From Patescibacteria group bacterium (lineage in GTDB: Bacteria > Patescibacteriota > Minisyncoccia > Phycocordibacterales > UBA918): a stretch of DNA of 64,000 bases. Shown in pieces: positions 30,585 to 54,205 of the stretch; the first letter of the stretch is position 1; every line of letters begins with the position of its first letter. The DNA is taken from positions 4,739 through 68,738 of the forward strand of contig JAIELQ010000002.1 in NCBI GenBank assembly GCA_019752815.1, in the 5' to 3' direction. The notes under the pieces are model-generated. The model worked only from the letters and a program-made list of their open reading frames with translations. It was not told the DNA's origin and made no database searches. Position numbers and translations under genes: made by a program.

Positions 30585-33500
30585 TTACAATCGTATGGAA
30601 AATAATTTAGAAAAATTCAAAAACACACTCAGGGTCATCTTTCAAATTGACCGTGCTGACCTTGATTTCGGTATTTACCGCATTTTAAACCAGAAACATA
30701 GGGAGATTGAAAGTTTTCTTGAACAAGACTTACTCCCGCAAGTAAAAAAAGAACTAGCTACCTACGAAGCTGGTGACTTAGCAGAACTTTCACGCGAACT
30801 CGATGAGAAGGTAGCAAAATTTCGTGCCGATGGATTCACTGACGATCAAATTAGTGCTAACGAAAAAATCTCAGAATTGCGCGACAAGCTAAAAACCGCA
30901 GATCGTGTAGCGACACTTGAAAGTGAAGTTTTTTCACACCTACTTCGCTTTTTTGAACGGTATTACGAAGAGGGAGACTTTATCAGCAAACGACGCTACA
31001 AGGACGGTGTCTATGCTATTCCGTATGAAGGGGAGGAGGTAAAGTTGTACTGGGCAAACCACGATCAGTACTACATTAAAACCAGTGAACGCTTCAAAGA
31101 CTTTTCATTCAAAGTAGGTGACAAAGGTGTCCACTTTAAAATTCGTGAAGCCGAAACAGATACAAACAATAATAAAAACATCACTGGTAAGGACCGACGG
31201 TTTGTGCTTTGTGCTGAGGATTTTTGGCAAGAAGATGGCGCCGTGCTTAATATTTTCTTTGAGTATGCCAGCGTTGATGGAAAAAAGAAGCAAGAGGAGT
31301 GTAGCAAGGAATCTGTTGAGCGTATTCTTTCTGACATACCTACTCATTGGAAGACTGTTCTCGGTGCTTTGGCTCCAACAGAGAAGCAGAAAGACCGTAC
31401 TACGTTGGAAAAATTCTTGACCTCGTATACCGCGCGAAACACCTTTGACTATTTCATTCATAAGGATCTTGGTACCTTCCTAACACGCGAACTAGACTTC
31501 TACATCAAGAATGAAGTGATGTTTCTTGATGATATTGAGAACGAGACCGTCCCACGCGCAGAGCAATATCTTGCCAAGGTAAAAGTAATTCGTGCCATTG
31601 GAAAAAAGATTATTCGTCTACTTGCACAACTCGAGGACTTCCAGAAGAAGCTATGGGAGAAGAAGAAATTTGTGGTTGGTACTGGGTACTGCATTACACT
31701 GGATTTGATCCCAGAACGATTTTACGATGCTATTTTAGAAAGTGAAGCACAGCGCAACGAATGGAAGCAGCTCGGCTTTGTCGATGACACAACATCGCTA
31801 GATCATGAGTACCTACGGTCACATCCGACACTTTCCATTGATACAAAATTCTTCCCAGAATGGCGAGATGGGCTTTTGGCTACGTTCGATAATCTTGATG
31901 AGCGAGTGAATGGCGTGATGATTAATTCTGAGAATTTTGGTGCCCTTAATTTACTCCAAGAACGATACAGCGAGCAGGTCAAAACAATCTATATTGATCC
32001 ACCTTACAATACATCAGCAAGTGAAATTTTGTATAAAAATGAGTATAAGCATTCAAGCTGGTTGTCATTAATGCAAAATAGACTCGATGAGAGTAAAAGC
32101 TTGTTACATTCATCTGGAGCCATATGCGTTGCCATTGATGATGAGGAAGTATCTGTCATTAAGACACTACTGACGGGTACATTTGATAAGAATTTAGGGA
32201 CAGTACTTGTTCGTTCAAATCCAGTGGGTAGAAAAACTACTGGTAAATTTACACCTAACCATGAATATGCGCTGTTCTTCGGTAAGACTGAGTCAGTTTC
32301 CCCATCAAGCATTACAGATCCTGAAAAGGGAGTAGAAAGATATCCACTTATAGATGGTACAGGTAGATACTCCTGGTTAAATTTTATTAGAGCTGGAAAT
32401 AATGATAGACGAGAAGATAGTCCACGCATGTATTATCCCATTGTTGTAACTCCTGATGATAAAATTCGAATACCTGAAATGCGATGGATTTCCGCTGTTG
32501 CCGGTTATGAAATCACAGAGAAATTGCATGAAGGAGAGGTAGTTATATACCCAATCAAACTTGAAAACGGTATTTCAATTGAAAAAAATTGGCAACGTGG
32601 ATTCGAAAGAGTTTCGACCGAGATCGACGAATACCGTGTGAGAAGAACTCCGACGGGTATATCAATTGATTTCAAAGCTAGAATGGATATGAATGCTGCT
32701 CCCAACACTTGGTGGGGCGATAGTAAGTATGCTTCAGCGAACTACGGTGCAGCTGAACTAAAGAGTCTATTTACTGATAATCCTTTCAGTTATCCTAAAG
32801 CTTGCGCATTAGTGAAAGATTGTATTACAGCAGCTGGGCTTAAAGATAGCAATGGGTTAATCATCGACTACTTCACTGGCTCAGGGACAACTGGTCATGC
32901 TGTACTGAAATTAAATAGTGAAGACAATAAAAATGAACCCGGGAGTGGTCAACGTAAATACATTCTCGTTGAAATGGGAGCATACTTCGATACGGTTACT
33001 AAGCCACGCATGCAAAAGGTGGTATATTCAGACGAATGGTCAGCAGGGAAGCCGCAGGACGATGGTGCCACTGGGACACGCGAACACATCATCAAATACT
33101 TCAAGCTAGAAAGCTACGAAGATACACTTAATAATCTTGAACTGTTGCGGTCCGACGACCAGCAAGCTACACTTGATCAACACCCGCATTTCCGTGAAGA
33201 CTACACACTTGGTTACATGCTCGATGTTGAAGCTCGGGGTAGCGTGTTGCGCCTAGATGCGTTTCGCAATCCTTTTGCATATACCATCAAACTTGCAACT
33301 GATGTAGTAGGAGAAAGTCGCGAGACACCTGTAGACTTGGTAGAAACATTCAATTACCTCATTGGACTTAAAACAGCTTCGGTGCGCCGGCATGGTGAAC
33401 ATTTACTAGTGGTAGAAGGCGAAACTCGTGGTGGAGAAAAAACACTTGTTATCTGGCGTAATCAAGAGATAGTTACTAATGACGGACTCGATGATTTCTT

Positions 33501-33648
33501 CAAGAAGCAGAACTATAGCACGACCGACTTTGAGTTTGATCGAGTATACGTAAATGGAGACAACAATCTAGAAAACCTGAAATCAGACAGTGATCAGTGG
33601 AAGGTAGTAACGATTGAAGAAGAATTCCATAAGCGAATGTTTGCGTAG
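30565..33648 (+). CDS. N6-adenine DNA methyltransferase, beta-class and Mod-like, with a ~470-aa N-terminal extension.
   Basis: Motif IV (IYIDPPYNT) at ~aa 478 precedes motif I (DYFTGSGTTGHAV) at ~aa 770, with a ~290-aa TRD-like spacer between them. The start overlaps the SNF2 stop. Confidence 0.7.
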   Translation: MSGNSFNYNRMENNLEKFKNTLRVIFQIDRADLDFGIYRILNQKHREIESFLEQDLLPQVKKELATYEAGDLAELSRELDEKVAKFRADGFTDDQISANEKISELRDKLKTADRVATLESEVFSHLLRFFERYYEEGDFISKRRYKDGVYAIPYEGEEVKLYWANHDQYYIKTSERFKDFSFKVGDKGVHFKIREAETDTNNNKNITGKDRRFVLCAEDFWQEDGAVLNIFFEYASVDGKKKQEECSKESVERILSDIPTHWKTVLGALAPTEKQKDRTTLEKFLTSYTARNTFDYFIHKDLGTFLTRELDFYIKNEVMFLDDIENETVPRAEQYLAKVKVIRAIGKKIIRLLAQLEDFQKKLWEKKKFVVGTGYCITLDLIPERFYDAILESEAQRNEWKQLGFVDDTTSLDHEYLRSHPTLSIDTKFFPEWRDGLLATFDNLDERVNGVMINSENFGALNLLQERYSEQVKTIYIDPPYNTSASEILYKNEYKHSSWLSLMQNRLDESKSLLHSSGAICVAIDDEEVSVIKTLLTGTFDKNLGTVLVRSNPVGRKTTGKFTPNHEYALFFGKTESVSPSSITDPEKGVERYPLIDGTGRYSWLNFIRAGNNDRREDSPRMYYPIVVTPDDKIRIPEMRWISAVAGYEITEKLHEGEVVIYPIKLENGISIEKNWQRGFERVSTEIDEYRVRRTPTGISIDFKARMDMNAAPNTWWGDSKYASANYGAAELKSLFTDNPFSYPKACALVKDCITAAGLKDSNGLIIDYFTGSGTTGHAVLKLNSEDNKNEPGSGQRKYILVEMGAYFDTVTKPRMQKVVYSDEWSAGKPQDDGATGTREHIIKYFKLESYEDTLNNLELLRSDDQQATLDQHPHFREDYTLGYMLDVEARGSVLRLDAFRNPFAYTIKLATDVVGESRETPVDLVETFNYLIGLKTASVRRHGEHLLVVEGETRGGEKTLVIWRNQEIVTNDGLDDFFKKQNYSTTDFEFDRVYVNGDNNLENLKSDSDQWKVVTIEEEFHKRMFA

Positions 33649-33651
33649 GAT

Positions 33652-36600
33652 ATGGCAAAGAAAGCAGCACCAAAAAAATCACTGCGTTTTGATCAACGAC
33701 TCGTGTTACAACGATGGTTTTTGTCGCTGTTTGATGTCGCAAAATTTGAAGATTTAGCAAAAGATCTCAAAGACCCACGCTACGAAGGTTACACCGAAGA
33801 TAATCAGTCTCACTTTTACCATCATCTGACAGCTCGAACTGCTCCGTTTAGTGGTATCAGTAAGGAACAGTTATTACGGTATGACGAAAATATCTTCTCA
33901 CATACTCTGCGCATCAGTGAACGTCGCCCGAGGCGAGTAACATGGAAATATTTCCAGTATCTTTCACTTTTAGCTACCGAAGTATATTTAGATCGTTGGT
34001 TCACAAATAAAGGAGAATTATGTGCTGACCTTAATGCCTATCTAACGACTTTCAATGATGAGCTACCTGTAAGTGATCAGGTAGAGCCATTCACTGTAGC
34101 TGGTCTATCAAAATTAGCGTTTTGGTCTGCAACAGGTAGTGGGAAGACACTGCTAATGCATGTGCACCTTTTACAGTATCTCCACTATGCGAAAAAACAT
34201 CGAGTAGAAAAAGACATCAATAAAGTCATCCTTATCACACCAAATGAAGGTTTGTCTTCCCAGCACTTAGACGAACTCAGCCTTTCAAGCATCCCGGCTC
34301 GGATTTTTACTAAAGGTAACGAGACAACGTCGCTATTCGCAGGCTTCGGAAATGAAAAACCTGTTGAAATCATCGAATATACAAAACTTAAAGAAGAGAG
34401 TAAGGAGAAAACGGTAGCACTTGAAGCCTTTGAGCATAACAATCTCGTATTTATTGACGAAGGACACAAAGGGGCAGGCGGCGATGTGATTAAACGTTAT
34501 CGCGATACACTATCCGAAGACGGTTTTGCATTTGAGTATTCAGCCACATTCGGTCAGTCGATTAAGGCTGCATCTACAGGTAAGCGAAAGCTATTAGAGC
34601 AGGAGTATGCCAAAGCCATTCTTTTTGATTACTCATACCGTTACTTCTATCGAGATGGATATGGTAAAGACTATAAAATTTTGAACCTGCCGGACGACCA
34701 AGCGTTCGATGAAGCAATCAGACGTTTGTATCTCACAGCTGGACTTTTAACATTCTACCAACAGACAAGGCTCTACACCGATGACACAAAGGCATGGAAA
34801 GCGTTCTTACTGGAGCGACCGTTGTGGGTCTTTGTTGGTGGCAAAGTAACTGCAGTTCGTAAGGAAGGTGGGCGTGAAGTATCTGATGTTGTTGAAATTA
34901 TTTTATTCATTAATGACTTTTTAGAGAATAAAAACGAAAGCAAGCGACTACTGAAAGGACTTATGGACGGCAAGACCGGACTTACAGACACAGCAGGTCG
35001 TGACGTATTTGCGTCATCTTTTGGCTACATACAGACTCTGGGACTATCTACCGAAGATTTGTACAACAACATTATAGAGTCCGTATTTCGTTCACGTGGT
35101 GGTCAACTACATCTTGATAATCTAAAAGGTGTCGATGGTGAGATTGGTGTACGCGTAGGGACGGGCGAGTACTTCGGTGTTATTAACGTTGGTGACGACA
35201 AGGAGCTTTTAAAGCTTTGTGAGACAAGTGGTATTAATACTGCCGAAGTTGAGTTCAGATCATCGCTCTTTAGAAAGATTAATGACGATGACTCAACAGT
35301 TAATCTTTTGATTGGTTCAAAAAAGTTTACTGAAGGGTGGAGTAGTTGGCGTGTAAGTTTGATGGGTCTGATGCATATTGGTCGCAGTGAAGGCTCAGAA
35401 ATCATCCAGCTGTTTGGTCGTGGAGTGCGTTTAAAGGGCAAAAACTGGTCTCTGAAGCGCAGTAAAGCAATTGAGGGTAGTAATGCGCCAAAACACATTC
35501 AGGTGCTCGAAACGCTCAATATTTTTGGTGTTCGTGCTGACTATATGCGCACCTTCAAGGAATATCTCGAGGAGGAAGGATTGCCGACTACAGATACAAT
35601 CGAAGTTGTATTACCTACACTTCGTACATTTGACCCAAATCGCAAACTTAAAGTACTACGCATTCGTGATGGAGTAAGTTTCAAGCGAGATGGTGGCAAA
35701 GTAGACTTCTCCTTGACGGTCGATAAACGCATTGCTCCAGTTGAACTCGATTGCTATCCGAAGCTTCAAGCCTTGGTTGGTGGTGTATCGCAAGGAATTA
35801 CTACTGATCCAGATGTGGGTATTTTTTCACCTGTTCACTTAGCATTCTTCAACTACACTGAGCTCTACTTCGAACTGCAAAAGTATAAAAACGAAAAGAA
35901 TTGGTACAACGTAAATATTACTGCGGAAAGTATCCAGAACCTACTGCTCGATACATCATGGTATCGCTTATACATCCCACACCAGCAATTGACCATGGGG
36001 GACTATTCACGTGTACGTTACTGGCAAGAAATTGCTCTATCATTACTCAAGAAGTACTTAGTGGCATTGTACAACTATCGTAAAGCAGAATGGGAAGAAC
36101 CATATCTTGAGTATCAGGACATGCGTTCTGATGATCCTAATTTTGTTGATGAATACCGAGTGAATGTACCCGATGATGCAGACCACAACGTAGCACTAGA
36201 TAAGATACGCTTGCTCGAGAAACTACTACTCCAACTGAAGAGAGAAAATAAAAACGAAGTGCCAGACGTACAATCGTTTGCTGCAGGTAGTTTCGTACCA
36301 TTTACGTTTGATCGTCACCTCTACCACCCGCTCATTCATATCGACGAAAGTATTGGTATGCAGATAACGGTAAAACCAGTTCACTTAAACGAAGGCGAGC
36401 ATCGTTTTGTTTTAGATTTGCAGCAGTTCTACAACGAGCAACCTGACGCGTTTGCTGGTAAGGAACTTTTTTTGCTTCGCAATAAGTCAAAAGAAGGAAT
36501 TGGGTTTTTTGAAGCGGGTAACTTCTATCCCGACTTCATCATGTGGCTTGTTGACGAGATGACCCAACACGTAGTATTTATTGATCCAAAAGGTATTCGT

Positions 36601-36840
36601 AATTTGGATATATCTGATGATCTTAAGCTGAACTTTCATGCCAAACTAAAGGAAAAAGAAGCCCGACTGGGTGAGCCAAATATCAAATTACACTCGTATA
36701 TCATTTCACGCACTCCATTTGATCTACTCATCAATTACAAATCGGACCAATCTTCACTTGAAGCAAAAAATATTTTATTCCAGCACCAAGGCAGTGATTA
36801 CGTACGCAAGATGTTAAGCAAGGTGCTTATAGAGGAGTAG
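33652..36840 (+). CDS. Res-like DEAH helicase with a C-terminal PD-(D/E)xK-type nuclease motif (a Type III Res-like subunit).
   Basis: Walker A (WSATGSGKT) and motif II (FIDEGHK) in the N-terminal third. Near the C-terminus a YPDF...VVFIDPKG (PD...DxK) motif. The start lies 4 nt after the methyltransferase stop. Confidence 0.6.
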   Translation: MAKKAAPKKSLRFDQRLVLQRWFLSLFDVAKFEDLAKDLKDPRYEGYTEDNQSHFYHHLTARTAPFSGISKEQLLRYDENIFSHTLRISERRPRRVTWKYFQYLSLLATEVYLDRWFTNKGELCADLNAYLTTFNDELPVSDQVEPFTVAGLSKLAFWSATGSGKTLLMHVHLLQYLHYAKKHRVEKDINKVILITPNEGLSSQHLDELSLSSIPARIFTKGNETTSLFAGFGNEKPVEIIEYTKLKEESKEKTVALEAFEHNNLVFIDEGHKGAGGDVIKRYRDTLSEDGFAFEYSATFGQSIKAASTGKRKLLEQEYAKAILFDYSYRYFYRDGYGKDYKILNLPDDQAFDEAIRRLYLTAGLLTFYQQTRLYTDDTKAWKAFLLERPLWVFVGGKVTAVRKEGGREVSDVVEIILFINDFLENKNESKRLLKGLMDGKTGLTDTAGRDVFASSFGYIQTLGLSTEDLYNNIIESVFRSRGGQLHLDNLKGVDGEIGVRVGTGEYFGVINVGDDKELLKLCETSGINTAEVEFRSSLFRKINDDDSTVNLLIGSKKFTEGWSSWRVSLMGLMHIGRSEGSEIIQLFGRGVRLKGKNWSLKRSKAIEGSNAPKHIQVLETLNIFGVRADYMRTFKEYLEEEGLPTTDTIEVVLPTLRTFDPNRKLKVLRIRDGVSFKRDGGKVDFSLTVDKRIAPVELDCYPKLQALVGGVSQGITTDPDVGIFSPVHLAFFNYTELYFELQKYKNEKNWYNVNITAESIQNLLLDTSWYRLYIPHQQLTMGDYSRVRYWQEIALSLLKKYLVALYNYRKAEWEEPYLEYQDMRSDDPNFVDEYRVNVPDDADHNVALDKIRLLEKLLLQLKRENKNEVPDVQSFAAGSFVPFTFDRHLYHPLIHIDESIGMQITVKPVHLNEGEHRFVLDLQQFYNEQPDAFAGKELFLLRNKSKEGIGFFEAGNFYPDFIMWLVDEMTQHVVFIDPKGIRNLDISDDLKLNFHAKLKEKEARLGEPNIKLHSYIISRTPFDLLINYKSDQSSLEAKNILFQHQGSDYVRKMLSKVLIEE

Positions 36841-43776: not shown

Positions 43777-44046
43777 CTAAGACCCTTCCATTGGGGGATT
43801 AGCTCGCTGCACCGGACTCACAATAGTCGGACTCCACTCGGCTTTTACCTCACCGTGTTCCTTTTCGTATTCTTTTAGTTGATGGGTCACATACTGCTGC
43901 AATCGCTTGGCATGTTGCGGGGTGAGCGTGTAAATCGCATTTTGACTGCCGGAACTGAGTCCCATGATAAAAAATTCGGGTGTATAGCCAATATTAATGC
44001 TTTCACAAAATAATTTTGGTGCTCGTTTTAAGTCTTCTGATTTCAT
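43777..44046 (-). CDS. Small hypothetical protein, possibly DUF3467-like.
   Basis: INIGYTPEFFIMG resembles the DUF3467 core. Weak. Confidence 0.35.
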   Translation of the reverse strand: MKSEDLKRAPKLFCESINIGYTPEFFIMGLSSGSQNAIYTLTPQHAKRLQQYVTHQLKEYEKEHGEVKAEWSPTIVSPVQRANPPMEGS

Positions 44047-44071
44047 ATGCTCTCATGGTACAGTATTTAAT

Positions 44072-44695
44072 ATGGATAACGCAAATAATGACCCGTCTAC
44101 TAATGATAAAAATGAACGTTTAGCAGATTTCTTCTTTGAAATCGGTACGATGCGCCGGATTCAACGTATGCTTCGGCAAACACTCCTCGTTGAAGACTCC
44201 TCAGACACTATTGCCTCACACTCGTACCGCGTAACGTTAATTGGTTGGCATCTGGCTAAATTAGCGGGAGCAGACCCGTACAAAGTAGTAATGATGTGCC
44301 TGACCCACGATTTGGGTGAAATTCGTAGTAACGATCATAACTGGGTTCATAAACGGTACGTAAAAATATACGAGGAAGAAATTACCAAAGACCAGCTAGG
44401 GTCACTACCATTTGATGATTTGTACAAAATAAGTCAAGAATACGAAGAGCGAGAGAGTCTGGAATCAAAATTAGCTAAAGACGCCGACATCATTGATCAA
44501 ATTTTACTTCTACGTGAGTATCAATGGCAGGGAAGTATTGAAGCGGGTATCTGGCTTGAGGGTAAACGAGATGAACTGGGTGCCCGACCACTTGATCGGC
44601 TCAAAACACCTGAAGCTCGAGCGCTCGGAGAAACACTCTACGAACGTAATCCTTCTGAATGGTGGAAAGATCTCTGGACGAACAAAAATCGCTAA
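44072..44695 (+). CDS. HD-domain phosphohydrolase (YfbR-like 5'-deoxynucleotidase family).
   Basis: HSYRV...LTHDLGE HD motifs. The start was placed at the internal MDNANND. Confidence 0.6.
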   Translation: MDNANNDPSTNDKNERLADFFFEIGTMRRIQRMLRQTLLVEDSSDTIASHSYRVTLIGWHLAKLAGADPYKVVMMCLTHDLGEIRSNDHNWVHKRYVKIYEEEITKDQLGSLPFDDLYKISQEYEERESLESKLAKDADIIDQILLLREYQWQGSIEAGIWLEGKRDELGARPLDRLKTPEARALGETLYERNPSEWWKDLWTNKNR

Positions 44696-44789
44696 CCTTT
44701 GTTTATATAACTATACTAAGAGTATAGTTGCGTAGAAAAATAACAAGGGTTATGCTGAGTCCTAGAAGTTTTTTATAGAGGGACAGAGC

Positions 44790-45779
44790 ATGTACAGTAC
44801 ACTCGGTACAAAAACGACCAAAACACCAGTCGCACGTCAACGAAATAGTAACGAGCTTGTCATCGGGAGCTGGAACACTTGGTCCGGATGTCTAGCTGAT
44901 ACCCTCGACCATGAAGAAGCAGTGGTTGAGTATACAACTGACTTGGTACGAAACTGTGATTTGCTAGGGCTGTATGAAGTTCATAGGCCTCGTCAAGAGA
45001 TTGACGTACGGTTTGTACAACCACGCGCGCCAAAAGGGCGTCCCGGTCGCATTGATGTCGAACTCCTTAAACGGGTTGAGCGTGTGGTAGCTGACACTCA
45101 CAGCATGGAGTTTGTTGCGCACTTTGGCACCACAGCACTACATGATTGCGAAGCTACAGATTTACCCGTTGACTACGGCAATGCACTCTTTGTTCGCCAT
45201 AGTCTCTTGCAACGTCCGTACAGTTTCGCTCTTGATCGGTTTGTGGTGTATGGTGATGGCAGTCTTAACTCTGAGGATAGCACAACCCTGAAGGGACGTA
45301 CGGCCAGTCGTAAAGGAATGGTTGCTACGGTGCAAATTGGTAAGGAGGCAGTAACCATTGCCTTTGTACACGGACTATGGACCAAAAAAGGTAAAGTGGA
45401 TATTCCGGCTCGAACCGCTCAATCGGCGTGTATCGCACAAGGAATTCTCCATCACCGTAAACGACTTAATCTGAATCCAAAATCAGGAAACATCCTCATT
45501 TTGGGAGATCTCAATTACACCAGTGATCTCGAGGCAATGGCGTATCTCCTCCATAATGAGGATGCGTTTGGCGTAGGTGGCGGAGTTAACCTCACGCCAC
45601 ATATTGATTCAAGAACCAAGTGGTATCCCGAAGATAAACCTACCCGGGAGGCTAACTTTGTTCTGGCTTCGGCGCCTGCAGCTGAGAAAATATCGACAAC
45701 TCACGTTGAAAATGAAGAGGTGCCGTCAGATCATGGCTATACCATGACCATTTATACCATCGCGCCAGGCATACCCTAA
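44790..45779 (+). CDS. Endonuclease/exonuclease/phosphatase (EEP) family protein.
   Basis: LILGDLNY and a C-terminal SDHG motif typical of the EEP fold. Confidence 0.55.
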   Translation: MYSTLGTKTTKTPVARQRNSNELVIGSWNTWSGCLADTLDHEEAVVEYTTDLVRNCDLLGLYEVHRPRQEIDVRFVQPRAPKGRPGRIDVELLKRVERVVADTHSMEFVAHFGTTALHDCEATDLPVDYGNALFVRHSLLQRPYSFALDRFVVYGDGSLNSEDSTTLKGRTASRKGMVATVQIGKEAVTIAFVHGLWTKKGKVDIPARTAQSACIAQGILHHRKRLNLNPKSGNILILGDLNYTSDLEAMAYLLHNEDAFGVGGGVNLTPHIDSRTKWYPEDKPTREANFVLASAPAAEKISTTHVENEEVPSDHGYTMTIYTIAPGIP

Positions 45780-45821
45780 TGCCTGGCGACTTTTTATCTA
45801 TAAAAGGAGTATAATGAATAT

Positions 45822-46715
45822 ATGGAAAATCAAACACCGAAACACTTTGTGTTGCAGTTAGGTTCACTTATTAGTTTATACATATCGCTCGGGTTTCTAC
45901 TCGGATTACTATTTGGCATTATTAATTTAAAATTTCCCGACGCGACCGAAGGGTATTGGGCAATAGAATCTGCCAGTAGTGCAGTCCGGCTTGGTATTGC
46001 GATGGTTGTTGTGTTCTTTCCAACGTATTTGGTGTTAACAAGATTAGTAAACAAGTTACGACGTAAAGAACAAAACAGTTCGTACCTCAATCTTACTAAG
46101 TGGCTGGTCTATTTATCGCTTTTGGTGGGTGGTGGAGTGTTGCTCGGGGATTTGGTAGCTGTGATTATGATGTTTCTTGAAGGTGATGTGACGCAACGAT
46201 TTATTTTTAAAGCCTTAGCAGTACTGGTTGTCGTGGGAATGGCGTTCCACTATTACATTCTCGATGCGCGGGGTTACTGGCTTAAAAATGAAAGCAAGTC
46301 CGTGATGTACGGATACGGAGCCCTCCTCGCTGTATTTATGATTGTTGCACTAGGGTTTTCATACATTGAAACTCCAGCCCAAGTGCGAGAAATGAAGCTT
46401 GATGAGACACAAATTTCTGACTTACAGTCAATCCAATGGAAAGTTGAAGAAGTGCTGACAATGAGTAGTTCGACTCCAGCCAACCTAGAGGAACTCTATG
46501 GTGAGTTTGATGCCCCAACCGCACCCGAAGGTCGTCCCGGGTATATCTACGAACGAACCGATACAGGCTTTAAACTCTGCGCTACCTTCTCTCGAGATAG
46601 TATTCAACCAGAAAATGAGTTTACGCCAAGCTATGACAATGGCATGAAGATTAAAAATCCTGACAACTGGGCCTACAAAGGCGGTGAATACTGTTTCGAC
46701 CGGGTAATAAAATAA
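45822..46715 (+). CDS. Hypothetical membrane protein (four N-terminal TM helices plus a C-terminal soluble domain).
   Basis: Hydrophobicity pattern. Followed by a terminator. Confidence 0.45.
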   Translation: MENQTPKHFVLQLGSLISLYISLGFLLGLLFGIINLKFPDATEGYWAIESASSAVRLGIAMVVVFFPTYLVLTRLVNKLRRKEQNSSYLNLTKWLVYLSLLVGGGVLLGDLVAVIMMFLEGDVTQRFIFKALAVLVVVGMAFHYYILDARGYWLKNESKSVMYGYGALLAVFMIVALGFSYIETPAQVREMKLDETQISDLQSIQWKVEEVLTMSSSTPANLEELYGEFDAPTAPEGRPGYIYERTDTGFKLCATFSRDSIQPENEFTPSYDNGMKIKNPDNWAYKGGEYCFDRVIK

Positions 46716-46726
46716 GTTACCATTCT

Positions 46727-46758
46727 TAAAAACACCTGGCATCAGCCAGGTGTTTTCT
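46727..46758. terminator. Bidirectional rho-independent terminator.
   Basis: AAAAACACCTGGC-ATCA-GCCAGGTGTTTTCT between convergent genes. Confidence 0.55.
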
Positions 46759-46765
46759 ATTTGGT

Positions 46766-48031
46766 CTATGCTAACGGCAAAGTAATCACAAACGTCGTAC
46801 CTTCGTTTTCGACTGAGTTTACCTGAATCGTTCCACCTAATATTTCCACTGATTCTTTTACAATGTATAACCCTAAGCCCGTTCCTTCGGCCCGGTGTAA
46901 TTGGGCGTTACTGGCGCGGAAGAATTTAGTAAACAGACGCTCTAACTGTTCAGCGGGTATGCCGATGCCATTATCTGCTACGGTAATCACGATGGTGCTC
47001 GCTGTTGCGACATACCCAAATTGAATAGTAGCGTTATTTTGTACGTACTTAACTGCATTGGATAGTAAGTTACTGGTAATAATATGAAATAAACGTGTAT
47101 CAGTATTAATCATCAGGTCAGCGGGTTCAAATGTTGGCACCAGGTTAATTTGTTTCTCGGTCACTGCTTGTTGGTATTCATCAATAATAGTTGTCAGGTA
47201 CTCACGAACGTTAATGGTTTCGATAGTGGTAGCAAACGTACCAGTTTCGAGTTTTGAGACACTTAAGAAGTCATTAATCAGTGCCAACATACGACTGACA
47301 TTACGAGTAATTTTTTCGAGATAATTTTTCTGCTTATCGGAACTAGTTTCGCGCATCGTTCGTTCCAGCAACTCTACATTCCAGCGTATGGCAGCAATTG
47401 GTGTTCGTAACTGATGTGTAGCCAGAGCCACAAACTCTGATTTTGCCATATCAACTTGTTTACGGTGTGTCATATCAACGAGTGACACGAGGCGCTGATT
47501 AAACGTTTCATTAACAAACATTGACATCGACACCCAGCGTTTTTGGTCTGCAAAAGTGGCAATTTCGAATTCTGTATCAAAAAACGAAACATTGGCTTCA
47601 AGTTTACCCATGGCAATCGAGACGGCATTATCGTCAGGACTTTGCAGTCGATCAATAATGGTTTTTCCAAATATTGTTTCCGTATCTGTGTCAAGTAGCC
47701 GCAGGGCAGCCTGATTACAAGTCGTGACTTGGCCTTTTTCATCAAGTGTCAGGTATGGTACGGGGCTTTGATTATAGAGTGTGGCATAGAGTGTTCGTGA
47801 GGCATGGATTTGTTTGTCATGCTCACGCTGTAATTGTTCGTCACCTGAACTATAAAAAAGAATGTAGATAGTAAACGTACCAATAAAAATAAGCGTTTGC
47901 CACAAAAGGCTGTACGGGATCAAAAATACATTTACTAATGCAGTCAAAATACCAAACAGGGTAGTAAATACTCCTATAATAAGTGCAGTACGAAGAACTC
48001 GCGTAGATTGGTTGCTAACCATTACCTCCAT
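46766..48031 (-). CDS. Sensor histidine kinase (TM, PAS, HisKA and HATPase_c domains).
   Basis: An H-box (FVALATHQLRTPIAAI) and N/G-box ATPase motifs near the C-terminus. Two N-terminal TM helices. Confidence 0.8.
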   Translation of the reverse strand: MEVMVSNQSTRVLRTALIIGVFTTLFGILTALVNVFLIPYSLLWQTLIFIGTFTIYILFYSSGDEQLQREHDKQIHASRTLYATLYNQSPVPYLTLDEKGQVTTCNQAALRLLDTDTETIFGKTIIDRLQSPDDNAVSIAMGKLEANVSFFDTEFEIATFADQKRWVSMSMFVNETFNQRLVSLVDMTHRKQVDMAKSEFVALATHQLRTPIAAIRWNVELLERTMRETSSDKQKNYLEKITRNVSRMLALINDFLSVSKLETGTFATTIETINVREYLTTIIDEYQQAVTEKQINLVPTFEPADLMINTDTRLFHIITSNLLSNAVKYVQNNATIQFGYVATASTIVITVADNGIGIPAEQLERLFTKFFRASNAQLHRAEGTGLGLYIVKESVEILGGTIQVNSVENEGTTFVITLPLA

Positions 48032-48115
48032 ATGCTTCTATGGTAGCACTCTATAACCATATACTTGGCTACAGTCTGTATATAGTGAAATAAAATGATG
48101 TGATATACTTTTTTT

Positions 48116-48499
48116 ATGAATAAGCATATCTTGGTAGTTGAAGACGAGCCAGACCTTCGCGAAGCGATGGTCGAAGTATTAACCGAAGCTGGCTTTAATG
48201 TTTCAGCTGCCGCTGATGGTGCCTCAGGTCTTGATACTGCCATCGTTGAAAAACCAGATTTGATTTTAATGGACTTGATGATGCCAATTATGGATGGACA
48301 CGAAATGTTACGACGGTTACGACTAGACCCTTGGGGCAGAACTGCGCATGTGGTTGTATTGTCGGCAATGGATGATGTCGCTAATATCGGCCATGCGCAT
48401 GAAGCCAAGCTTGAGGATTACATTATCAAAGCCCACACCAGCCTCGACGAACTGGTTAAAAAAGTACGTGAGTTTATAGCGATAGCAGACAGCCGCTAA
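48116..48499 (+). CDS. Stand-alone response-regulator receiver domain (CheY-like).
   Basis: ILVVEDEPDLRE...LILMDLMMPIMDGHEML. No output domain. Confidence 0.75.
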   Translation: MNKHILVVEDEPDLREAMVEVLTEAGFNVSAAADGASGLDTAIVEKPDLILMDLMMPIMDGHEMLRRLRLDPWGRTAHVVVLSAMDDVANIGHAHEAKLEDYIIKAHTSLDELVKKVREFIAIADSR

Positions 48500-48809
48500 G
48501 TTTTTTAACAAACTGGTCGCGGTTTACAAAATTTGTAATCAGAGTACGATTATTGGGCATGAAATAGGGAGGAAACACATGCGTGAAAAGAAGCCGTTCT
48601 TTAACTCGTTTGATTCTGTTGCTGTACCGGCAATACTTCTGCTCATATTTCTTGGAGTAGTCGTCGCCTTGCCGGCAGTACAAAATATTTGATTCGCGTA
48701 TACGCGAACATCGAGCACTGCTCTAAGGCGTTCCCTTCTTGGAACGCCTTTGACTATTTATATATTCACGGCATAATGAGTGTCTACTAGCTAACTGAGT
48801 ACCACCACT

Positions 48810-51641
48810 ATGCACAAAAAGTTTGATTCCGGAGAAATAGAAAAGAAATGGCAAAACCTCTGGAAAGAACGTGGTATCTACAATGTTGGCGCTCGTGACC
48901 TCACCAAACCAAAATCATACGTGCTCGTTGAATGGCCCTATCCATCTGGGAATCTCCACATTGGTCACTGGTATGCCTTTGCGGTACCTGATATCTATGC
49001 TCGTTATAAGCGAATGACTGGTCACCAGACACTCTACCCAATGGGGTTTGATGCATTTGGATTGCCGGCAGAAAACGCGGCGATTAAACGTAACCTCGAT
49101 CCCAAAGATTGGACGTATTCGAACATGGCATTTATGCGTGAACAGCTCGAGCGCATGGGGAATATGTTTAGTTGGGATATGACAACCAACTCAACCGACC
49201 AAGACTACTACAAATGGACCCAGTGGATGTTCACCCAGTTTTTTGAGCGTGGTATCGCGTATCGCGGCAAGGGAATTGTAAACTGGTGCCCGGGATGTAA
49301 TACCGCAGTAGCTAATGAACAGGTGTTGGCGGACGGTACCTGTGAACGCTCAGGTGACGTGATTGAAAAACGAGAAATGCCACAATGGATGATGAAAATC
49401 ACTGACTACGCTGATCGGTTAATTGATGATCTGGATACCCTCGATTGGCCAGAACATATCAAAGAGTCCCAGCGACAGTGGATTGGTCGAAGTAAGGGTG
49501 CCAAGTTAACGTTTAACCTCTCTGTTAACAGAAAGGTCGAAGTTTTTACAACTAGACCAGATACATTATTCGGGGCTACCTACCTCGTTATTGCACCCGA
49601 ACATCCTTTACTTAATGACTCAGAAGTTCGAGGCGAGACCTCGAATTTGGTTGATGTTGATGCCTATATCAAAACTGCTACTCAAAAAGCCGAACAAGAC
49701 CGTCTTGATGCCACCAAAGAGAAAACCGGGGTGAAGCTCGAGGGTATTACCGCTACCAATCCCGCAAGTGGCGAATCAATTCCGGTGTATGTGGCTGATT
49801 ATGTACTAGGTGGCTATGGTACCGGCGCCATTATGGCTGTACCGGCACACGATGAACGCGATCATGCTTTTGCTACCAAATTTGGGTTACCAATTAAACA
49901 AGTTGTAGCAACCCATTTTATTAAACGTGACGATATAACCAGGACTAGAATAGGTGTCTACGGCCTGATTGAACAGGCAGGAAAATACTTAATCCAGCAT
50001 TTTACAAAGGATGATTTTTACTGGCTCCCAGGAGGTGGTCTCGATCAGGGTGAAACATTTGAAGAAGGTTTGGTTCGTGAGCTCAATGAAGAAACACCAT
50101 ATACTGACTTCAAAATAAATTCGCCGTTAACTGTAGGAATTATTGATACTCAATCAAGTCATAGTGGAGATTCTATTCGAAACATTACCAATGTATTTTC
50201 AGTTGAAATTGCATCAACAAACGAGTCACCGACCGCACTCACCGAGTCCGAAGTGTTGGACGGTATCGAAATGCACTGGCTCAGTAAAAGTGAAATTCTC
50301 AAATTGCAATCAAAATTTGAACCTGAAAGAGTACACCTAATCATTGAGGCTATCGAAAAATATGAGGGAATGATCAAAACTTCAGCAGGCACACTAGTAA
50401 ACTCTGGTGAATTCGATGGGATGGATTCAGAGGAGGCTAAAGAAAAAATTGTTGCGAAAGTCGGTGGGGAAATGACCTCGACCTACCGATTACGTGATTG
50501 GTCTATTGGTCGTCAGCGGTATTGGGGTGTACCAATTCCAATAGTGTATTCGCCAGAAGGTGTTGCCCATATCGTACCTAAAGAACATCTACCGTGGGTG
50601 CTGCCCGCAGACGTTGATTTTAAACCAACCGGTATTGCGCCGTTAGCTAAAAGTGAGGCACTCAAGAAACGGACGGAAGAAATATTCGGGACAGGGTGGA
50701 CACCAGAAGTAGAAACCATGGATACATTCGTTGATTCGTCATGGTATTTCTTGCGATACTTTGATAACCAAAACAACGAATCACTCTCATCGCTCGAAAA
50801 ACAAAAAGAGTGGATGCCAATTGATATGTATTTTGGTGGAGCCGAACACACAACGATGCACTTACTGTATTCTCGGTTCTGGCAGAAAGCACTGTTTGAT
50901 CTTGGACTCGTAGCAGACAACGAACCATACAAACGTCGTATTAATCACGGGATGATTTTGGGTCCTGACGGAAACAAAATGAGTAAGAGTAAAGGAAACG
51001 TAGTAGACCCTGATGAACAGGTGGCACGAGTTGGTGCTGATACAGTTAAAATGTATCTGGCATTTATGGGACCATACGCGGATAGTAGTTATCCCTGGGA
51101 TATGGGTGGGCTCGCCGGGGTGCGACGTTTTTTGGAACGAGTATATGGACTAACTGAACATATTATAGAATCGGAGCCAGAAACTGTTACGAGACAGCTA
51201 CATAAGACCATTACGAAAGTAGGAACTGATATTAGTGAGTTTAAATTCAACACCGCCATTTCAGCGATGATGATTCTCGTTAACCAATGCGAGAAAGAGG
51301 GAATACGTCGAGAATCATATGAGGCATTTGTAAAAATGCTCGCTCCATTTGCTCCGCATATTACCGAACAGATCTGGTCTGAACTCGGTAATAGCGAATC
51401 AATCCACCTCCAGACATTCCCAATTGCAGACCCAGCTTTGGCAATTGATTTATCGGTTATTATCGGCGTACAAATAAACGGAAAATTGCGTGGTCAAATA
51501 GAGGTCGCTCCTGATGCCACCGAAACAGAAGTAATAAATGCCGTACAAGACAATCCACAATTACAAGAAAAGTTACTGACTGGCACTCTGGCCAAAGTTA
51601 TATATGTGCCTGGACGGATCCTGAACCTTATTGTGAAATAA
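48810..51641 (+). CDS. leuS: Leucyl-tRNA synthetase with an inserted NUDIX domain.
   Basis: HIGH (LHIGHWYAF) and KMSKS (NKMSKSKGN) motifs. Editing-domain motifs (TTRPDT, GTGAIMAVPAHDERD). An extra ~160-aa segment contains a complete Nudix box. Confidence 0.9.
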   Translation: MHKKFDSGEIEKKWQNLWKERGIYNVGARDLTKPKSYVLVEWPYPSGNLHIGHWYAFAVPDIYARYKRMTGHQTLYPMGFDAFGLPAENAAIKRNLDPKDWTYSNMAFMREQLERMGNMFSWDMTTNSTDQDYYKWTQWMFTQFFERGIAYRGKGIVNWCPGCNTAVANEQVLADGTCERSGDVIEKREMPQWMMKITDYADRLIDDLDTLDWPEHIKESQRQWIGRSKGAKLTFNLSVNRKVEVFTTRPDTLFGATYLVIAPEHPLLNDSEVRGETSNLVDVDAYIKTATQKAEQDRLDATKEKTGVKLEGITATNPASGESIPVYVADYVLGGYGTGAIMAVPAHDERDHAFATKFGLPIKQVVATHFIKRDDITRTRIGVYGLIEQAGKYLIQHFTKDDFYWLPGGGLDQGETFEEGLVRELNEETPYTDFKINSPLTVGIIDTQSSHSGDSIRNITNVFSVEIASTNESPTALTESEVLDGIEMHWLSKSEILKLQSKFEPERVHLIIEAIEKYEGMIKTSAGTLVNSGEFDGMDSEEAKEKIVAKVGGEMTSTYRLRDWSIGRQRYWGVPIPIVYSPEGVAHIVPKEHLPWVLPADVDFKPTGIAPLAKSEALKKRTEEIFGTGWTPEVETMDTFVDSSWYFLRYFDNQNNESLSSLEKQKEWMPIDMYFGGAEHTTMHLLYSRFWQKALFDLGLVADNEPYKRRINHGMILGPDGNKMSKSKGNVVDPDEQVARVGADTVKMYLAFMGPYADSSYPWDMGGLAGVRRFLERVYGLTEHIIESEPETVTRQLHKTITKVGTDISEFKFNTAISAMMILVNQCEKEGIRRESYEAFVKMLAPFAPHITEQIWSELGNSESIHLQTFPIADPALAIDLSVIIGVQINGKLRGQIEVAPDATETEVINAVQDNPQLQEKLLTGTLAKVIYVPGRILNLIVK

Positions 51642-51736
51642 CCCCCGTACTACTATTTGACGTATTTCAATTGGCATGATATAAATACGGACACGCATTG
51701 AGGTAAACTCTTAATTAACAAGCTTTAGCAACACTT

Positions 51737-52762
51737 ATGATTACGTTCAAACCAAAACAAGTCACCAAAAAACTACTCGCCGCACTCCCTGAACGGGCCC
51801 GCGACGTGCTCACAAAACGGTACGGCTTGAATGCCGCGAGCGAGACTTTTACGCTTGAAGCCATTGGGCAGTCCTACGGCATCACTCGTGAACGTGTCCG
51901 CCAAATTGAAAATTACGGCATCGCGTCAATCCAAAAATCTCCGGTATATGCCGAACATGCTGAACTGTTCGCCGAACTACACGAGCTCATCAAGCAGCTC
52001 GGTGGTGGTGTGGTAGCTGAACATGTCCTCTTGGATAATTTAGCACCAGACGAATCAACTCGAAATCACCTCTATTTCATCTTGGTAGTAGGAGACGCCT
52101 TCTACAAGGGCAAGGAAAACCCTCTCTACGCGCACCGCTGGTTTACCGAAAAGAAAATTGCCGATACGGTAGAAAAAGCTCTTAAGAACGTACACGGGAC
52201 CCTCAATCGTGATGACCTCGTTTCAGAACAAGAAATTCTTAATCGCTTCCGCGCTGAGCTCATTGAACTAGCTGACAAACACGATGATGAGACACTCAAG
52301 CGTTGGTTGTCTATCTCAAAACAAATCGCTCAGAATCCACTCGGCGACTGGGGACCAAGTGACAGTCCAAACGTTCGCGTTAAAGGTATTCGAGACTACG
52401 CATACTTAGCTGTTAAACGTCACGGTTCACCAATGCACTTCAAAGAAGTATCGGAATCAATCAAGGAGCTATTCAAACACAAAGCGCACGTCGCCACTAC
52501 CCACAACGAACTCATCAAAGATGCTCGTTTTGTACTCGTCGGCCGTGGACTCTATGCACTCACTGAATGGGGATACACCGCTGGAGTAGTAAAGGATGTA
52601 TTACGAGAAATCCTAGCAAACGATGGTCCACTCTCACGAGAAGAACTTATCGACAAGGTACGAAAAGAACGCTACGTCAAAGACAACACGATTGTGGTAA
52701 ACCTCCAGGACACAAACTTGTTTAAACGACTGAGTAACGGAACATACACATTGGCTGAATAA
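51737..52762 (+). CDS. Protein with an N-terminal sigma-70 region-4-like HTH.
   Basis: LTKRYGL...TLEAIGQSYGITRERVRQIE resembles the sigma70 region 4 consensus. The rest is unassigned. Confidence 0.45.
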   Translation: MITFKPKQVTKKLLAALPERARDVLTKRYGLNAASETFTLEAIGQSYGITRERVRQIENYGIASIQKSPVYAEHAELFAELHELIKQLGGGVVAEHVLLDNLAPDESTRNHLYFILVVGDAFYKGKENPLYAHRWFTEKKIADTVEKALKNVHGTLNRDDLVSEQEILNRFRAELIELADKHDDETLKRWLSISKQIAQNPLGDWGPSDSPNVRVKGIRDYAYLAVKRHGSPMHFKEVSESIKELFKHKAHVATTHNELIKDARFVLVGRGLYALTEWGYTAGVVKDVLREILANDGPLSREELIDKVRKERYVKDNTIVVNLQDTNLFKRLSNGTYTLAE

Positions 52763-52870
52763 TTAAATACACAGCGAGCAATTCCCAGCCCTCAGTTTGA
52801 GTAGCTGGGAATTGCATTTGGTGAAAAGAATATAAATTAATTCGAGAGTAAGGTACAATAATCACAACAT

Positions 52871-54205
52871 ATGGGAGACCTCTTTAAAGTCCTCGGCGGA
52901 ATCATAGCAGCACCAGTCATTCTTATAACTGCTTTTTTTGTGATGCGGTATACGTTTTCGGTCATGGGTATCGATATGGGCCCGGTGGTTTCTATCATGG
53001 TGGCACTCACGCCCATTTGGCTTCCGTTTGTTTTATTTTTCTTGCTCTATGACAAATGGATGGAATACATTCACGTTAAGTACCGAGTCAGCCAAGGAAG
53101 ATCTACTTTGCGGATTAAAATCCCAAGCGAAACATTCAAATCACCTGAAGCCATGGAGAACGTGCTCAGCATGGTGTACAACGTACAATCCTCTGATAAC
53201 TTGTGGCAAACCTACATTGACGGCAAACACCCGCTTATCATGTCACTGGAGATTGTCTCAATTGGAGGTGATGTACGGTTATACATAAACTGCCCAACTA
53301 AAAAAGTGAAAAATGCCGTTGAGGCACAACTCTATGCCCAATATCCCGGGGTAGAAGTGGTAGAGGAAGAATTTGATTACACTGCAGAAATCGTACCGAA
53401 TCACGATAAATACGATATGTTTGCCCTGCACCACAAACAAAAGGGTGAGGAGGTTTTCCCGATTAAAACCTATATAGATTTCGGGTTAGATAAACTTCCA
53501 AAAGAAGAATTCAAACTCGATCCAATGGCTCCCATGATTGAACATATCGGAACCTGTAAACCATACGAACGACTGTGGATTCAAATTTTATGTATCCCAC
53601 ATACCAAGAAAAATTTCAAAAACGGACATCTGCAAGGGCATGATACGTGGGAACATGAAGTACGTGCAAAAATTGATGAAATGATGGGTCGGGGTCATGA
53701 CCACACTGGTCCGGCAGAGCTCGAAAACCAACCTCGTCTCACCACCGGCGAACGAAATATTATTGAATCAATGGAACGCAATGTTTCAAAAACTGCTTAT
53801 GAGGTGGCAATTCGATGGGTCTATGTTACTAAAAAAGGAGCCTTCAACGGGAATTTTATCGCTCCATTGATTCGTACGTTCTCACAATACGACGTTATCG
53901 GACGGAACCAGCTTGGTGTGGCGTGGCGTACTGACTTTGACTACAACATGTTCCAAGACTATTCGGGCAAGAAAAAACGCCGCTTAAAAATTGAAGAAGT
54001 AAATCACTACAAAACACGCCAGCCAATGCATGGCTCTGGGTTAAATGGTACACCATCAATGAAATTCCAAGTTATGTCCGTGGAGGAATTGGCCACCATG
54101 TTCCACATTCCAAGTAGTACCGTGATGACTCCAGGTTTATCGCGTATCCCATCAACTCGAAAAGAAGCTCCGTCAAACCTACCAATTGGTACTCCATCAC
54201 TGTAA
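52871..54205 (+). CDS. Hypothetical membrane-anchored protein of 444 aa.
   Basis: Two N-terminal TM helices. No recognisable family. Confidence 0.45.
   Translation: MGDLFKVLGGIIAAPVILITAFFVMRYTFSVMGIDMGPVVSIMVALTPIWLPFVLFFLLYDKWMEYIHVKYRVSQGRSTLRIKIPSETFKSPEAMENVLSMVYNVQSSDNLWQTYIDGKHPLIMSLEIVSIGGDVRLYINCPTKKVKNAVEAQLYAQYPGVEVVEEEFDYTAEIVPNHDKYDMFALHHKQKGEEVFPIKTYIDFGLDKLPKEEFKLDPMAPMIEHIGTCKPYERLWIQILCIPHTKKNFKNGHLQGHDTWEHEVRAKIDEMMGRGHDHTGPAELENQPRLTTGERNIIESMERNVSKTAYEVAIRWVYVTKKGAFNGNFIAPLIRTFSQYDVIGRNQLGVAWRTDFDYNMFQDYSGKKKRRLKIEEVNHYKTRQPMHGSGLNGTPSMKFQVMSVEELATMFHIPSSTVMTPGLSRIPSTRKEAPSNLPIGTPSL

Follow-up and report, generated by a model that had tools for sequence, protein, structure and literature searches.

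The gene leuS, encoding leucyl-tRNA synthetase (LeuRS), lies in the 64-kb stretch of a Patescibacteria group bacterium genome analyzed here (contig JAIELQ010000002.1; the whole stretch of 64,000 nucleotides is hereafter called the window), and its product carries a genuine Nudix domain inside the CP1 editing domain. The editing-domain loop that holds this domain is a cassette slot, the content of which is swapped, multiplied or lost between near-identical strains. This cassette behavior is the unexpected element of the result. We favor, with a probability of roughly 55%, a reading in which LeuRS acts as a permissive essential carrier and the Nudix domain as an autonomous accessory enzyme, not as an integral device for clearing by-products in cis.

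A Nudix domain within the editing domain of LeuRS

The leuS gene occupies positions 48810–51641 on the plus strand as a single open reading frame (ORF) of 943 amino acids plus a stop codon, the complete coding sequence of a bacterial-type LeuRS with an insert. The protein matched TIGR00396 (leuS_bact) with 886.1 bits against a cut-off of 548.4, in two stretches separated by the insert, and phmmer retrieved LeuRS from Thermus thermophilus (1h3n) at E = 1e-199. Pfam profiles identified tRNA-synt_1, the editing domain (PF13603, E = 4.5e-59) and the anticodon-binding domain. The alignment to 1h3n ended at residue 366 of the query (Thermus residue 362) and restarted at residue 526 (Thermus residue 380), so that 159 residues (367–525; positions 49908–50384, plus strand) stand in place of a 17-residue Thermus loop (363–379), a net gain of ~143 residues. 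This segment, a Nudix hydrolase cassette of what we call type 5, has no counterpart in canonical LeuRS. It also divides the editing-domain profile: the PF13603 stretch at residues 222–369 covers profile positions 1–143 of 185, and the match is split in two at position 143.

PF00293 (NUDIX) matched residues 379–500 at E = 1.7e-9 with 38.2 bits, above the gathering cut-off of 21.1. Homologous inserts reached ~154 bits against the same profile, and a profile of the insert family matched solved Nudix chains in the PDB at E = 3e-11. An earlier, sequence-only reading of the window had proposed a Nudix domain inserted into LeuRS at 49920–50400; the PF00293 match, the 1h3n alignment and the fold models bear this out, and the proposed span is essentially that given by the alignment. 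The motifs it had quoted as flanks are LPIKQVV at residues 360–366 and YRLRDWSIGRQRYWG at residues 559–573. Its right-hand marker, YRLRDW, is indeed present, but canonical LeuRS sequence resumes 33 residues before it, at about residue 526 (AGTLVNSGEFDG).

The Nudix box spans G409–Y431 (GGLDQGETFEEGLVRELNEETPY; positions 50034–50102, plus strand) and was matched by the regular expression G-x5-E-x7-R-E-U-x-E-E-x-[G>P]-U. The segment quoted as a textbook box, GGGLDQGETFEEGLVRELNEET (residues 408–429, nucleotides 50031–50096), sits where it had been placed and fits the consensus at every position but the last Gly, which is Pro430 here. Likewise, the preceding strands (RIGVYGLIEQAGKYLIQHF, residues 380–398) had been said to fit the Nudix fold, with which the predicted strands at 376–389 and 392–398 and the Nudix helix at 417–428 agree.

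The full-length AlphaFold2 model, based on 109 homologues, had a mean predicted local distance difference test (pLDDT) score of 88.2 and a predicted template modeling (pTM) score of 0.79, with values of 78–96 in the insert region. Modeled alone from an alignment of excised inserts, the insert yielded a pLDDT of 93.0 and a pTM of 0.86 with the same secondary structure, which is the behavior expected of an independent domain with a Nudix fold. The predicted fold is an alpha/beta/alpha sandwich with the box on a loop-helix-loop, as in Nudix proteins, and structural neighbors of the insert include BdRppH and E. coli RppH. The whole model superposed on the E. coli LeuRS–tRNA aminoacylation complex (TMt 0.83). 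In these models, the insert caps a hairpin in the C-terminal part of CP1, with its N and C termini adjacent, and is predicted to fold on its own.

Two other identities were considered for the insert and rejected. The Pfam, profile and fold evidence rules out that the segment is a lineage-specific CP insertion resembling Nudix only by chance. An intein is rejected because the insert termini (ATHFIK… and …EGMIKTSAG, followed by TLV) lack the Cys/Ser/Thr…His-Asn-Cys/Ser/Thr arrangement and the fold is Nudix, not Hint.

Exchange of cassettes at the editing-domain slot

We compared the window protein with a closest-relative set made up of the 120 best-scoring LeuRS clusters at 90% identity. One Nudix domain of 141–164 residues occupied the same site in 100 clusters, and nine had two tandem Nudix domains in proteins of ~1100 residues. 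One cluster combined a Nudix domain with an alpha/beta serine hydrolase (PF06821) located earlier in the editing domain, and ten had only a short variable loop (10–56 residues). The architecture had been described as unusual from the sequence; it is absent from canonical LeuRS, but most of the ~120 closest LeuRS clusters have it.

Across the 100 single-insert homologues, the cores shared a mean identity of 75%, against a mean of 29% and a minimum of 11% for the inserts, and core and insert identity were essentially uncorrelated (Spearman 0.10). The inserts fell into about eleven clusters, with at least eight paralogous types ~20% identical to one another, and in only 46% of cases did the nearest core neighbor match in insert type. 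The window protein and its own nearest core neighbor (P0004, type 9) are 94% identical in the core and 19% identical in the insert. Gene order is shared between the window and the contig encoding P0004 (L001), running DUF5671, PAS-kinase, response regulator, leuS, sigma70_r4, DUF8128, YceG and MnmA. In a blastn comparison with this contig, window positions 45786–49903 (77.5%) and 50400–52767 (82%) aligned, and nothing aligned at 49904–50399.

The same discontinuity was found between more similar sequences. Contigs L083 and L084, which encode P0003 with a double insert (type 10 + type 5-like), and contigs L001 and L002, which encode P0004 with its single type 9, are 95–98.5% identical in the DNA flanking the insert. 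Their inserts show no similarity and differ in length (~1016 versus ~530 nucleotides), with the left breakpoint precisely at codon 366. Each allele was backed by two or more independent contigs that came from different samples. More broadly, slot content was unlike in 32 of 40 pairs with cores at least 90% identical, as in type 5 versus types 4 + 11 at 98.4% core identity or type 9 versus no insert at 97.1%; alleles without an insert occurred at 90–97% core identity.

The tandem forms follow a rule: the first domain was always of type 4, 9 or 10, and the second of type 5/6 or 11. Because this order is fixed, we regard the types as ordered paralogous modules; some of the single forms may descend from ancestors with several modules by differential loss. 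A single orthologous insert evolving rapidly was considered as an explanation for the low identity between types and rejected, given that within-type nonsynonymous divergence (pN) is less than twice that of the core (0.19 versus 0.11), that tandem forms hold two types side by side and that near-identical flanks bracket unrelated inserts. Compared with a Kaiserbacteria orthologue of the same type (L003), the insert had a pN of 0.19, a synonymous divergence (pS) of 0.73 and a dN/dS of ~0.08, and the core a pN of 0.11. Each cassette is under purifying selection, not decaying.

The exchange itself is likely to proceed by homologous recombination through the conserved LeuRS flanks (…FGLPIKQVV, cassette, G.L.NSGEFDGMDSEEAKEKIV…). 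Inspection of the junction DNA for repeats or site motifs showed none, and the right-hand breakpoint varies between alleles. The GC content of the insert is 0.39 versus 0.45 in the rest of leuS, a value as low as in 13% of windows of the same size, and is therefore not significant evidence of foreign origin.

LeuRS–Nudix proteins were encoded in GTDB representatives labelled Candidatus Kaiserbacteria, Adlerbacteria, Moraniibacteriota, Uhrbacteria and Saccharimonadales/Saccharibacteria, the closest among GTDB species representatives being a Kaiserbacteria sequence with 80% identity over the queried segment. This taxonomic range is a lower bound, since most of what the genome scan returned reflected the generic LeuRS pattern HDERDHAF, including many LeuRS genes without an insert. 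The haloarchaeal, Thermoleophilia and proteobacterial LeuRS loci returned by that scan had no insert, apart from two metagenome-assembled genomes with likely mis-binned labels. A leuS ORF with three Nudix domains (1461 residues; L017:2996–7378, plus strand) was found on Ca. Saccharimonadales contig JBDHUK010000002.1, with the domains at residues 387–508, 687–808 and 911–1031. This array is the largest seen.

We also ran an exhaustive hidden Markov model search with the insert profile against 1.84 billion cluster representatives and analyzed the best 150 matches. LeuRS or LeuRS fragments accounted for 58 of them, with one Nudix domain in 41, two in 13 and three in 4; the rest were mostly free-standing proteins with single or tandem Nudix domains, and no other aminoacyl-tRNA synthetase (aaRS) was among these 150. 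In distant LeuRS, the modules were located at the same site or at the N-terminal edge of the editing domain. Among relatives, HAD phosphatases or alpha/beta hydrolases also occurred in or next to the editing domain, usually alongside Nudix: a 1141-residue LeuRS (P0174) has a HAD phosphatase (PF13419/PF00702) at residues 245–414, and LeuRS proteins of 1169 (P0169) and 1124 residues (P0093) have alpha/beta serine hydrolases (PF06821/PF00561). Because these other hydrolase folds are inserted in or beside the same editing domain, the slot is not specific to Nudix.

The nearest relatives outside LeuRS were free-standing Nudix proteins, namely P0133, P0137 and P0144 (~310–330 residues), P0141 and P0165 (450–650 residues) and P0139. 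Many of the free-standing relatives had two to four tandem Nudix domains, and P0133 comes from the firmicute Alkaliphilus serpentinus. P0139 (143 residues) closely resembles the type 4 cassette and lies on a 616-bp contig, which leaves its free-standing status uncertain. A 1318-residue protein that is not a LeuRS (P0132), with the order GNAT, Nudix, GNAT and M17 leucyl-aminopeptidase, also ranked high in the search with the insert profile.

Role of the Nudix module and alternative explanations

Conservation of the Nudix box was assessed across 110 insert-bearing homologues. G409, E424 and E427 were present in all 110 and E428 in 109, E415 in 88 (Q in 16, D in 5) and R423 in 91 (A in 15, K in 4). 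A strict Nudix box was found in 64 of the 100 single inserts, and the catalytic core of the box in 98. Because E424, E427 and E428 are conserved and dN/dS is low, the insert is likely to be catalytically active, as a Mg2+-dependent pyrophosphohydrolase of some nucleoside-diphosphate-X compound, a prediction made from sequence. Outside the box, R373, E479/E481 and W490 are nearly invariant over all cassette types despite ~20% overall identity, as is G410; E481, 53 residues past E428, may be an extra metal ligand or the catalytic base.

Comparisons with characterized Nudix subfamilies placed the window protein in none of them; it belongs to bacterial LeuRS and to the Nudix superfamily at large. 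The best weak NCBIfam matches of the cassettes were RppH, MutT and NudI and were driven by the box. The window cassette scored 26.3 bits against the MutT 8-oxo-dGTPase model (TIGR00586; cut-off 97.9), matching over the box only, 20–22 bits against the RppH models (PRK00714; cut-offs 116–139, with other types at no more than 29.5 bits) and 22–23 bits against NadM-Nudix (PRK05379; cut-offs 354–409). ADP-ribose pyrophosphatases have a Pro ~16 residues after the box; in the window cassette, position +16 is Thr and the only nearby Pro is at +8. The NADH pyrophosphatase NudC is marked by a downstream SQPWPFPxS motif and CoA pyrophosphatases by an upstream LLTxR[SA] NuCoA motif, and a search of the whole window protein found neither.

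In the model that we favor, a surface hairpin late in CP1 (V366 to A526) would be a permissive slot holding an autonomous, catalytically competent Nudix pyrophosphohydrolase. The module would hydrolyze a nucleoside-diphosphate-X compound (a nucleoside triphosphate (NTP), a dinucleoside polyphosphate or a nucleoside diphosphate derivative) with Mg2+ bound by E424, E427 and E428, and LeuRS would supply an essential, constitutively expressed carrier. Slot content would be exchanged, duplicated and deleted, presumably by homologous recombination through the conserved LeuRS flanks, with the outcome that different strains would display different Nudix paralogues. This carrier model is preferred because the module is dispensable, exchangeable and variable in copy number (0–3), and because unrelated hydrolases join it in relatives. 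The same features suggest that the module is independent of LeuRS catalysis.

Several observations weigh against the carrier model. Among the best profile matches, only LeuRS carries such modules, which hints at a functional tie to LeuRS, and a similar hint comes from the linkers, which are predicted with fair confidence (pLDDT 78–84). None of eight representative cassettes reached any curated Nudix equivalog cut-off, and we infer both substrate and catalysis. In addition, the window box has Pro for the last consensus Gly and E>Q and R>A substitutions occur in the box of type 9 cassettes, so some modules may be altered or binding-only.

The first alternative extends a suggestion of the sequence-only reading, by which the domain might hydrolyze aminoacyl-adenylate or by-products of the diadenosine tetraphosphate (Ap4A) type in cis. 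Here the Nudix domain would break down adenylate-derived side products formed at the synthetic site (Ap4A, Ap3A, Ap4N or mis-activated aminoacyl-AMP) before these escape by diffusion. Aminoacyl-tRNA synthetases make Ap4A from aminoacyl-AMP and ATP, and Nudix enzymes are the classic ApnA hydrolases (reviews include PMC10148737). The modules are associated with LeuRS specifically, the structural neighbors of the insert include ApnA hydrolases and RppH, and the weak best NCBIfam matches of several cassette types are to RppH, all in line with such a role. ApnA hydrolases, as reportedly defined by Dunn et al. (1999), carry a Tyr 16–18 residues after the Nudix box; an aromatic residue stands at +14 to +18 in 84 of 98 single inserts, a further point in its favor, whereas the window cassette has DTQS at +15 to +18 and no such Tyr. 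Clearance in cis is nevertheless unlikely and the suggestion did not find support: the module is dispensable, being absent at 90–97% core identity, is swapped for paralogues ~20% identical to it and occurs in one to three copies, which would be unexpected of an integral partner. Moreover, HAD and alpha/beta hydrolases fill nearby slots of the same domain in relatives, and the insert lies in the editing domain, not beside the ATP site. The strong Ap4A producers are LysRS and PheRS; LeuRS is not known to be among them, yet it alone carries the insert. An aminoacyl-adenylate such as Leu-AMP is an acyl-phosphate with no pyrophosphate bond, whereas Nudix enzymes cleave nucleoside-diphosphate-X linkages.

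A second alternative invokes conflict. Under diversifying or frequency-dependent selection, the module would destroy nucleotide toxins, signals or antibiotics of hosts, competitors or phages, such as modified NTPs, ADP-ribose-derived signals or (p)ppNpp, and its mounting on LeuRS would protect the translation machinery or be gated by it. Strain-level turnover combined with purifying selection on each cassette is a pattern typical of defense and counter-defense loci, and many paralogous types, copy numbers of 0–3 and the recruitment of different hydrolase chemistries to the same domain would also fit. Patescibacteria are nucleotide-scavenging episymbionts, GNATs detoxify aminoacyl-nucleotide antibiotics, and the IleRS family with a GNAT domain (NF040702) shows that an aaRS can bear an added enzyme domain. 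Set against these points, PADLOC returned only a weak generic match over the Nudix-box region (PDC-S07, E = 1.7e-6), no defense genes are evident beside leuS in the window, and differential loss from a multi-Nudix ancestor could give part of the pattern without conflict. Natural inhibitors that target LeuRS (agrocin 84 TM84, sulfamoyl adenylates) are also not known to contain a pyrophosphate bond that a Nudix enzyme could cut. Overall, we consider a conflict origin rather improbable. The same low standing applies to a more specific version in which the loop would be a recombination-driven display slot for a conflict-driven, strain-variable arsenal (one to three Nudix domains, HAD and alpha/beta hydrolases) gated by leucine- and tRNA-dependent CP1 movement. 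If true, such a slot would couple amino-acid status to the clearance of alarmones or toxins.

A role in RNA-end processing is very improbable. An RppH-like Nudix domain would here strip pyrophosphate or a cap (ppp, NAD or Np4A) from the 5′ end of RNA bound by LeuRS, for example tRNA-Leu. RppH was the weak best NCBIfam match for five of the eight representative cassettes and, as described above, lies among the structural neighbors; the editing domain also contacts the tRNA acceptor end, where the 5′ and 3′ ends meet. However, all of these matches are far below the family cut-offs and owe their scores to the Nudix box, RNase P normally leaves bacterial tRNAs with a 5′ monophosphate, arrays of up to three domains (~480 residues or more) suggest that the loop points away from the tRNA path, and close relatives dispense with the module.

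The least credible alternative is a non-catalytic Nudix fold that would serve as a ligand sensor (NrtR-type) or spacer modulating editing-domain movement and tying LeuRS to a nucleotide metabolite; the position of the mobile CP1 domain governs the aminoacylation and editing states, and the box substitutions of type 9 and the G>P change of the window cassette would suit such a role, but conservation of the three metal-binding glutamates in 109–110 of 110 homologues over all types is hard to explain without catalysis, and alleles with no insert and with several coexist on near-identical cores.

Related architectures, the synthetase core and the neighborhood of leuS

Canonical LeuRS from E. coli (4AQ7/5OMW) and T. 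thermophilus (1H3N/2BTE) share ~34% identity with the window protein, together with HIGH, KMSKS, the CP1 motifs and the anticodon-binding and C-terminal domains. They differ in having a 17-residue loop where the window protein has its 159-residue Nudix domain, and no solved LeuRS has a Nudix domain. Free-standing Nudix proteins (E. faecalis 2AZW, N. europaea 2B0V, BdRppH 3EES, the T. thermophilus Ap6A hydrolase Ndx1 1VC8, and NudI) are 18–26% identical to the insert; they are separate proteins, whereas the window domain is embedded in the middle of an enzyme. NadM-Nudix (2QJO, PRK05379) likewise joins a nucleotidyltransferase of the HIGH superfamily and a Nudix domain in one polypeptide, and the insert is weakly similar to it (E = 0.0025 to 2qjo, E = 4e-5 to PRK05379). 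Unlike the LeuRS insert, NadM-Nudix is an end-to-end fusion, an ADP-ribose pyrophosphatase of NAD metabolism, with neither loop insertion nor strain variation. IleRS with GNAT (NF040702, ileS_w_GNAT), compared by family listing alone, is a class Ia aaRS with an extra small-molecule enzyme domain in an NCBI "exception" family. It differs in synthetase, added fold and chemistry, and LeuRS–Nudix has no curated family. Architecturally, this family and NadM-Nudix come closest to the LeuRS insert among known proteins. Inteins resemble the insert in population pattern only, in that both are in-frame at a fixed site of a conserved essential protein and are present or absent between close relatives. 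In contrast to inteins, the insert lacks splicing signatures and an endonuclease, is predicted to remain part of the mature protein and is selected for its Nudix catalytic residues.

Most known accessory domains of aaRSs are appended to the termini of eukaryotic enzymes. Searches of the full text of 7.7 million PMC papers and of bioRxiv, which leave subscription-only literature outside their scope, found no description of the LeuRS–Nudix architecture, which appears to be visible to automatic Pfam annotation yet undescribed. A complete second enzyme within the proofreading domain of a bacterial LeuRS appears to be a new architecture and is widespread in the Candidate Phyla Radiation (CPR), and leuS is an essential, conserved housekeeping gene with a hypervariable internal cassette that differs at 95–98% flanking DNA identity. 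As such, it is a clean natural setting in which to study how domains recombine within essential genes. The tolerance of the CP1 loop for ~150 to more than 480 extra residues could be useful for engineering LeuRS fusions and for work on editing-domain dynamics. The finding also points to Nudix-type nucleotide hydrolysis as important under a minimal, scavenging metabolism.

Annotation and phylogenomics are affected as well, the latter in that leuS alignments from CPR bacteria include non-orthologous blocks. The NCBI pipeline gives only "class I tRNA ligase family protein": the identical protein in NCBI ("Patescibacteria group bacterium") bears this name, not leucine–tRNA ligase, and the TIGR00396 match split by the insert may lie behind it.

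The synthetase core around the insert is intact. The HIGH signature of the class I synthetic site lies at positions 48957–48968 (residues 50–53), with H50, G52 and H53 invariant in a 109-sequence alignment that also underlies the conservation given below; all features listed here are on the plus strand. The N-terminal four-fifths of the CP1 editing domain spans 49473–49907 (residues 222–366, PF13603) and ends where the insert begins. It contains the threonine-rich editing motif TTRPDT (49548–49565, residues 247–252), with T247, T248, R249 and T252 invariant, and the editing-site motif with the conserved Asp, GTGAIMAVPAHDERD (49818–49862, residues 337–351), in which G337, T338, G339, H347, D348, R350 and D351 are invariant and AHDERD is present. 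After the insert, the C-terminal remainder of the editing domain, AGTLVNSGEFDGMDSEEAKEKIV, leads back to the catalytic core (50385–50483, residues 526–558; Thermus LeuRS from residue 380), with G527, L529, N531 and S532 conserved. The KMSKS loop of the synthetic site follows at 50976–50990 (residues 723–727), with K723, M724, S725, K726 and S727 all invariant, and the helical anticodon-binding domain at 51189–51530 (residues 794–907; PF08264, E = 5.8e-21). Because the catalytic and editing residues are invariant and the model superposes on the E. coli LeuRS–tRNA complex, both the aminoacylation and the editing activities of LeuRS are predicted to be retained.

Around leuS, an HD-domain YfbR-like 5′-deoxynucleotidase (PF13023/PF12917) and a protein of the endonuclease/exonuclease/phosphatase family are encoded at 43997–45776, ~3–5 kb upstream; these two genes are not in the same place on the syntenic contig L001. 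Downstream, a 444-residue ORF at 52871–54205 had no Pfam match in the window, and its counterpart on L001 matched PF26449 (DUF8128), with synteny conserved. Farther away, three consecutive large ORFs of 951, 1027 and 1062 residues occupy positions 27729–36840 on the plus strand.

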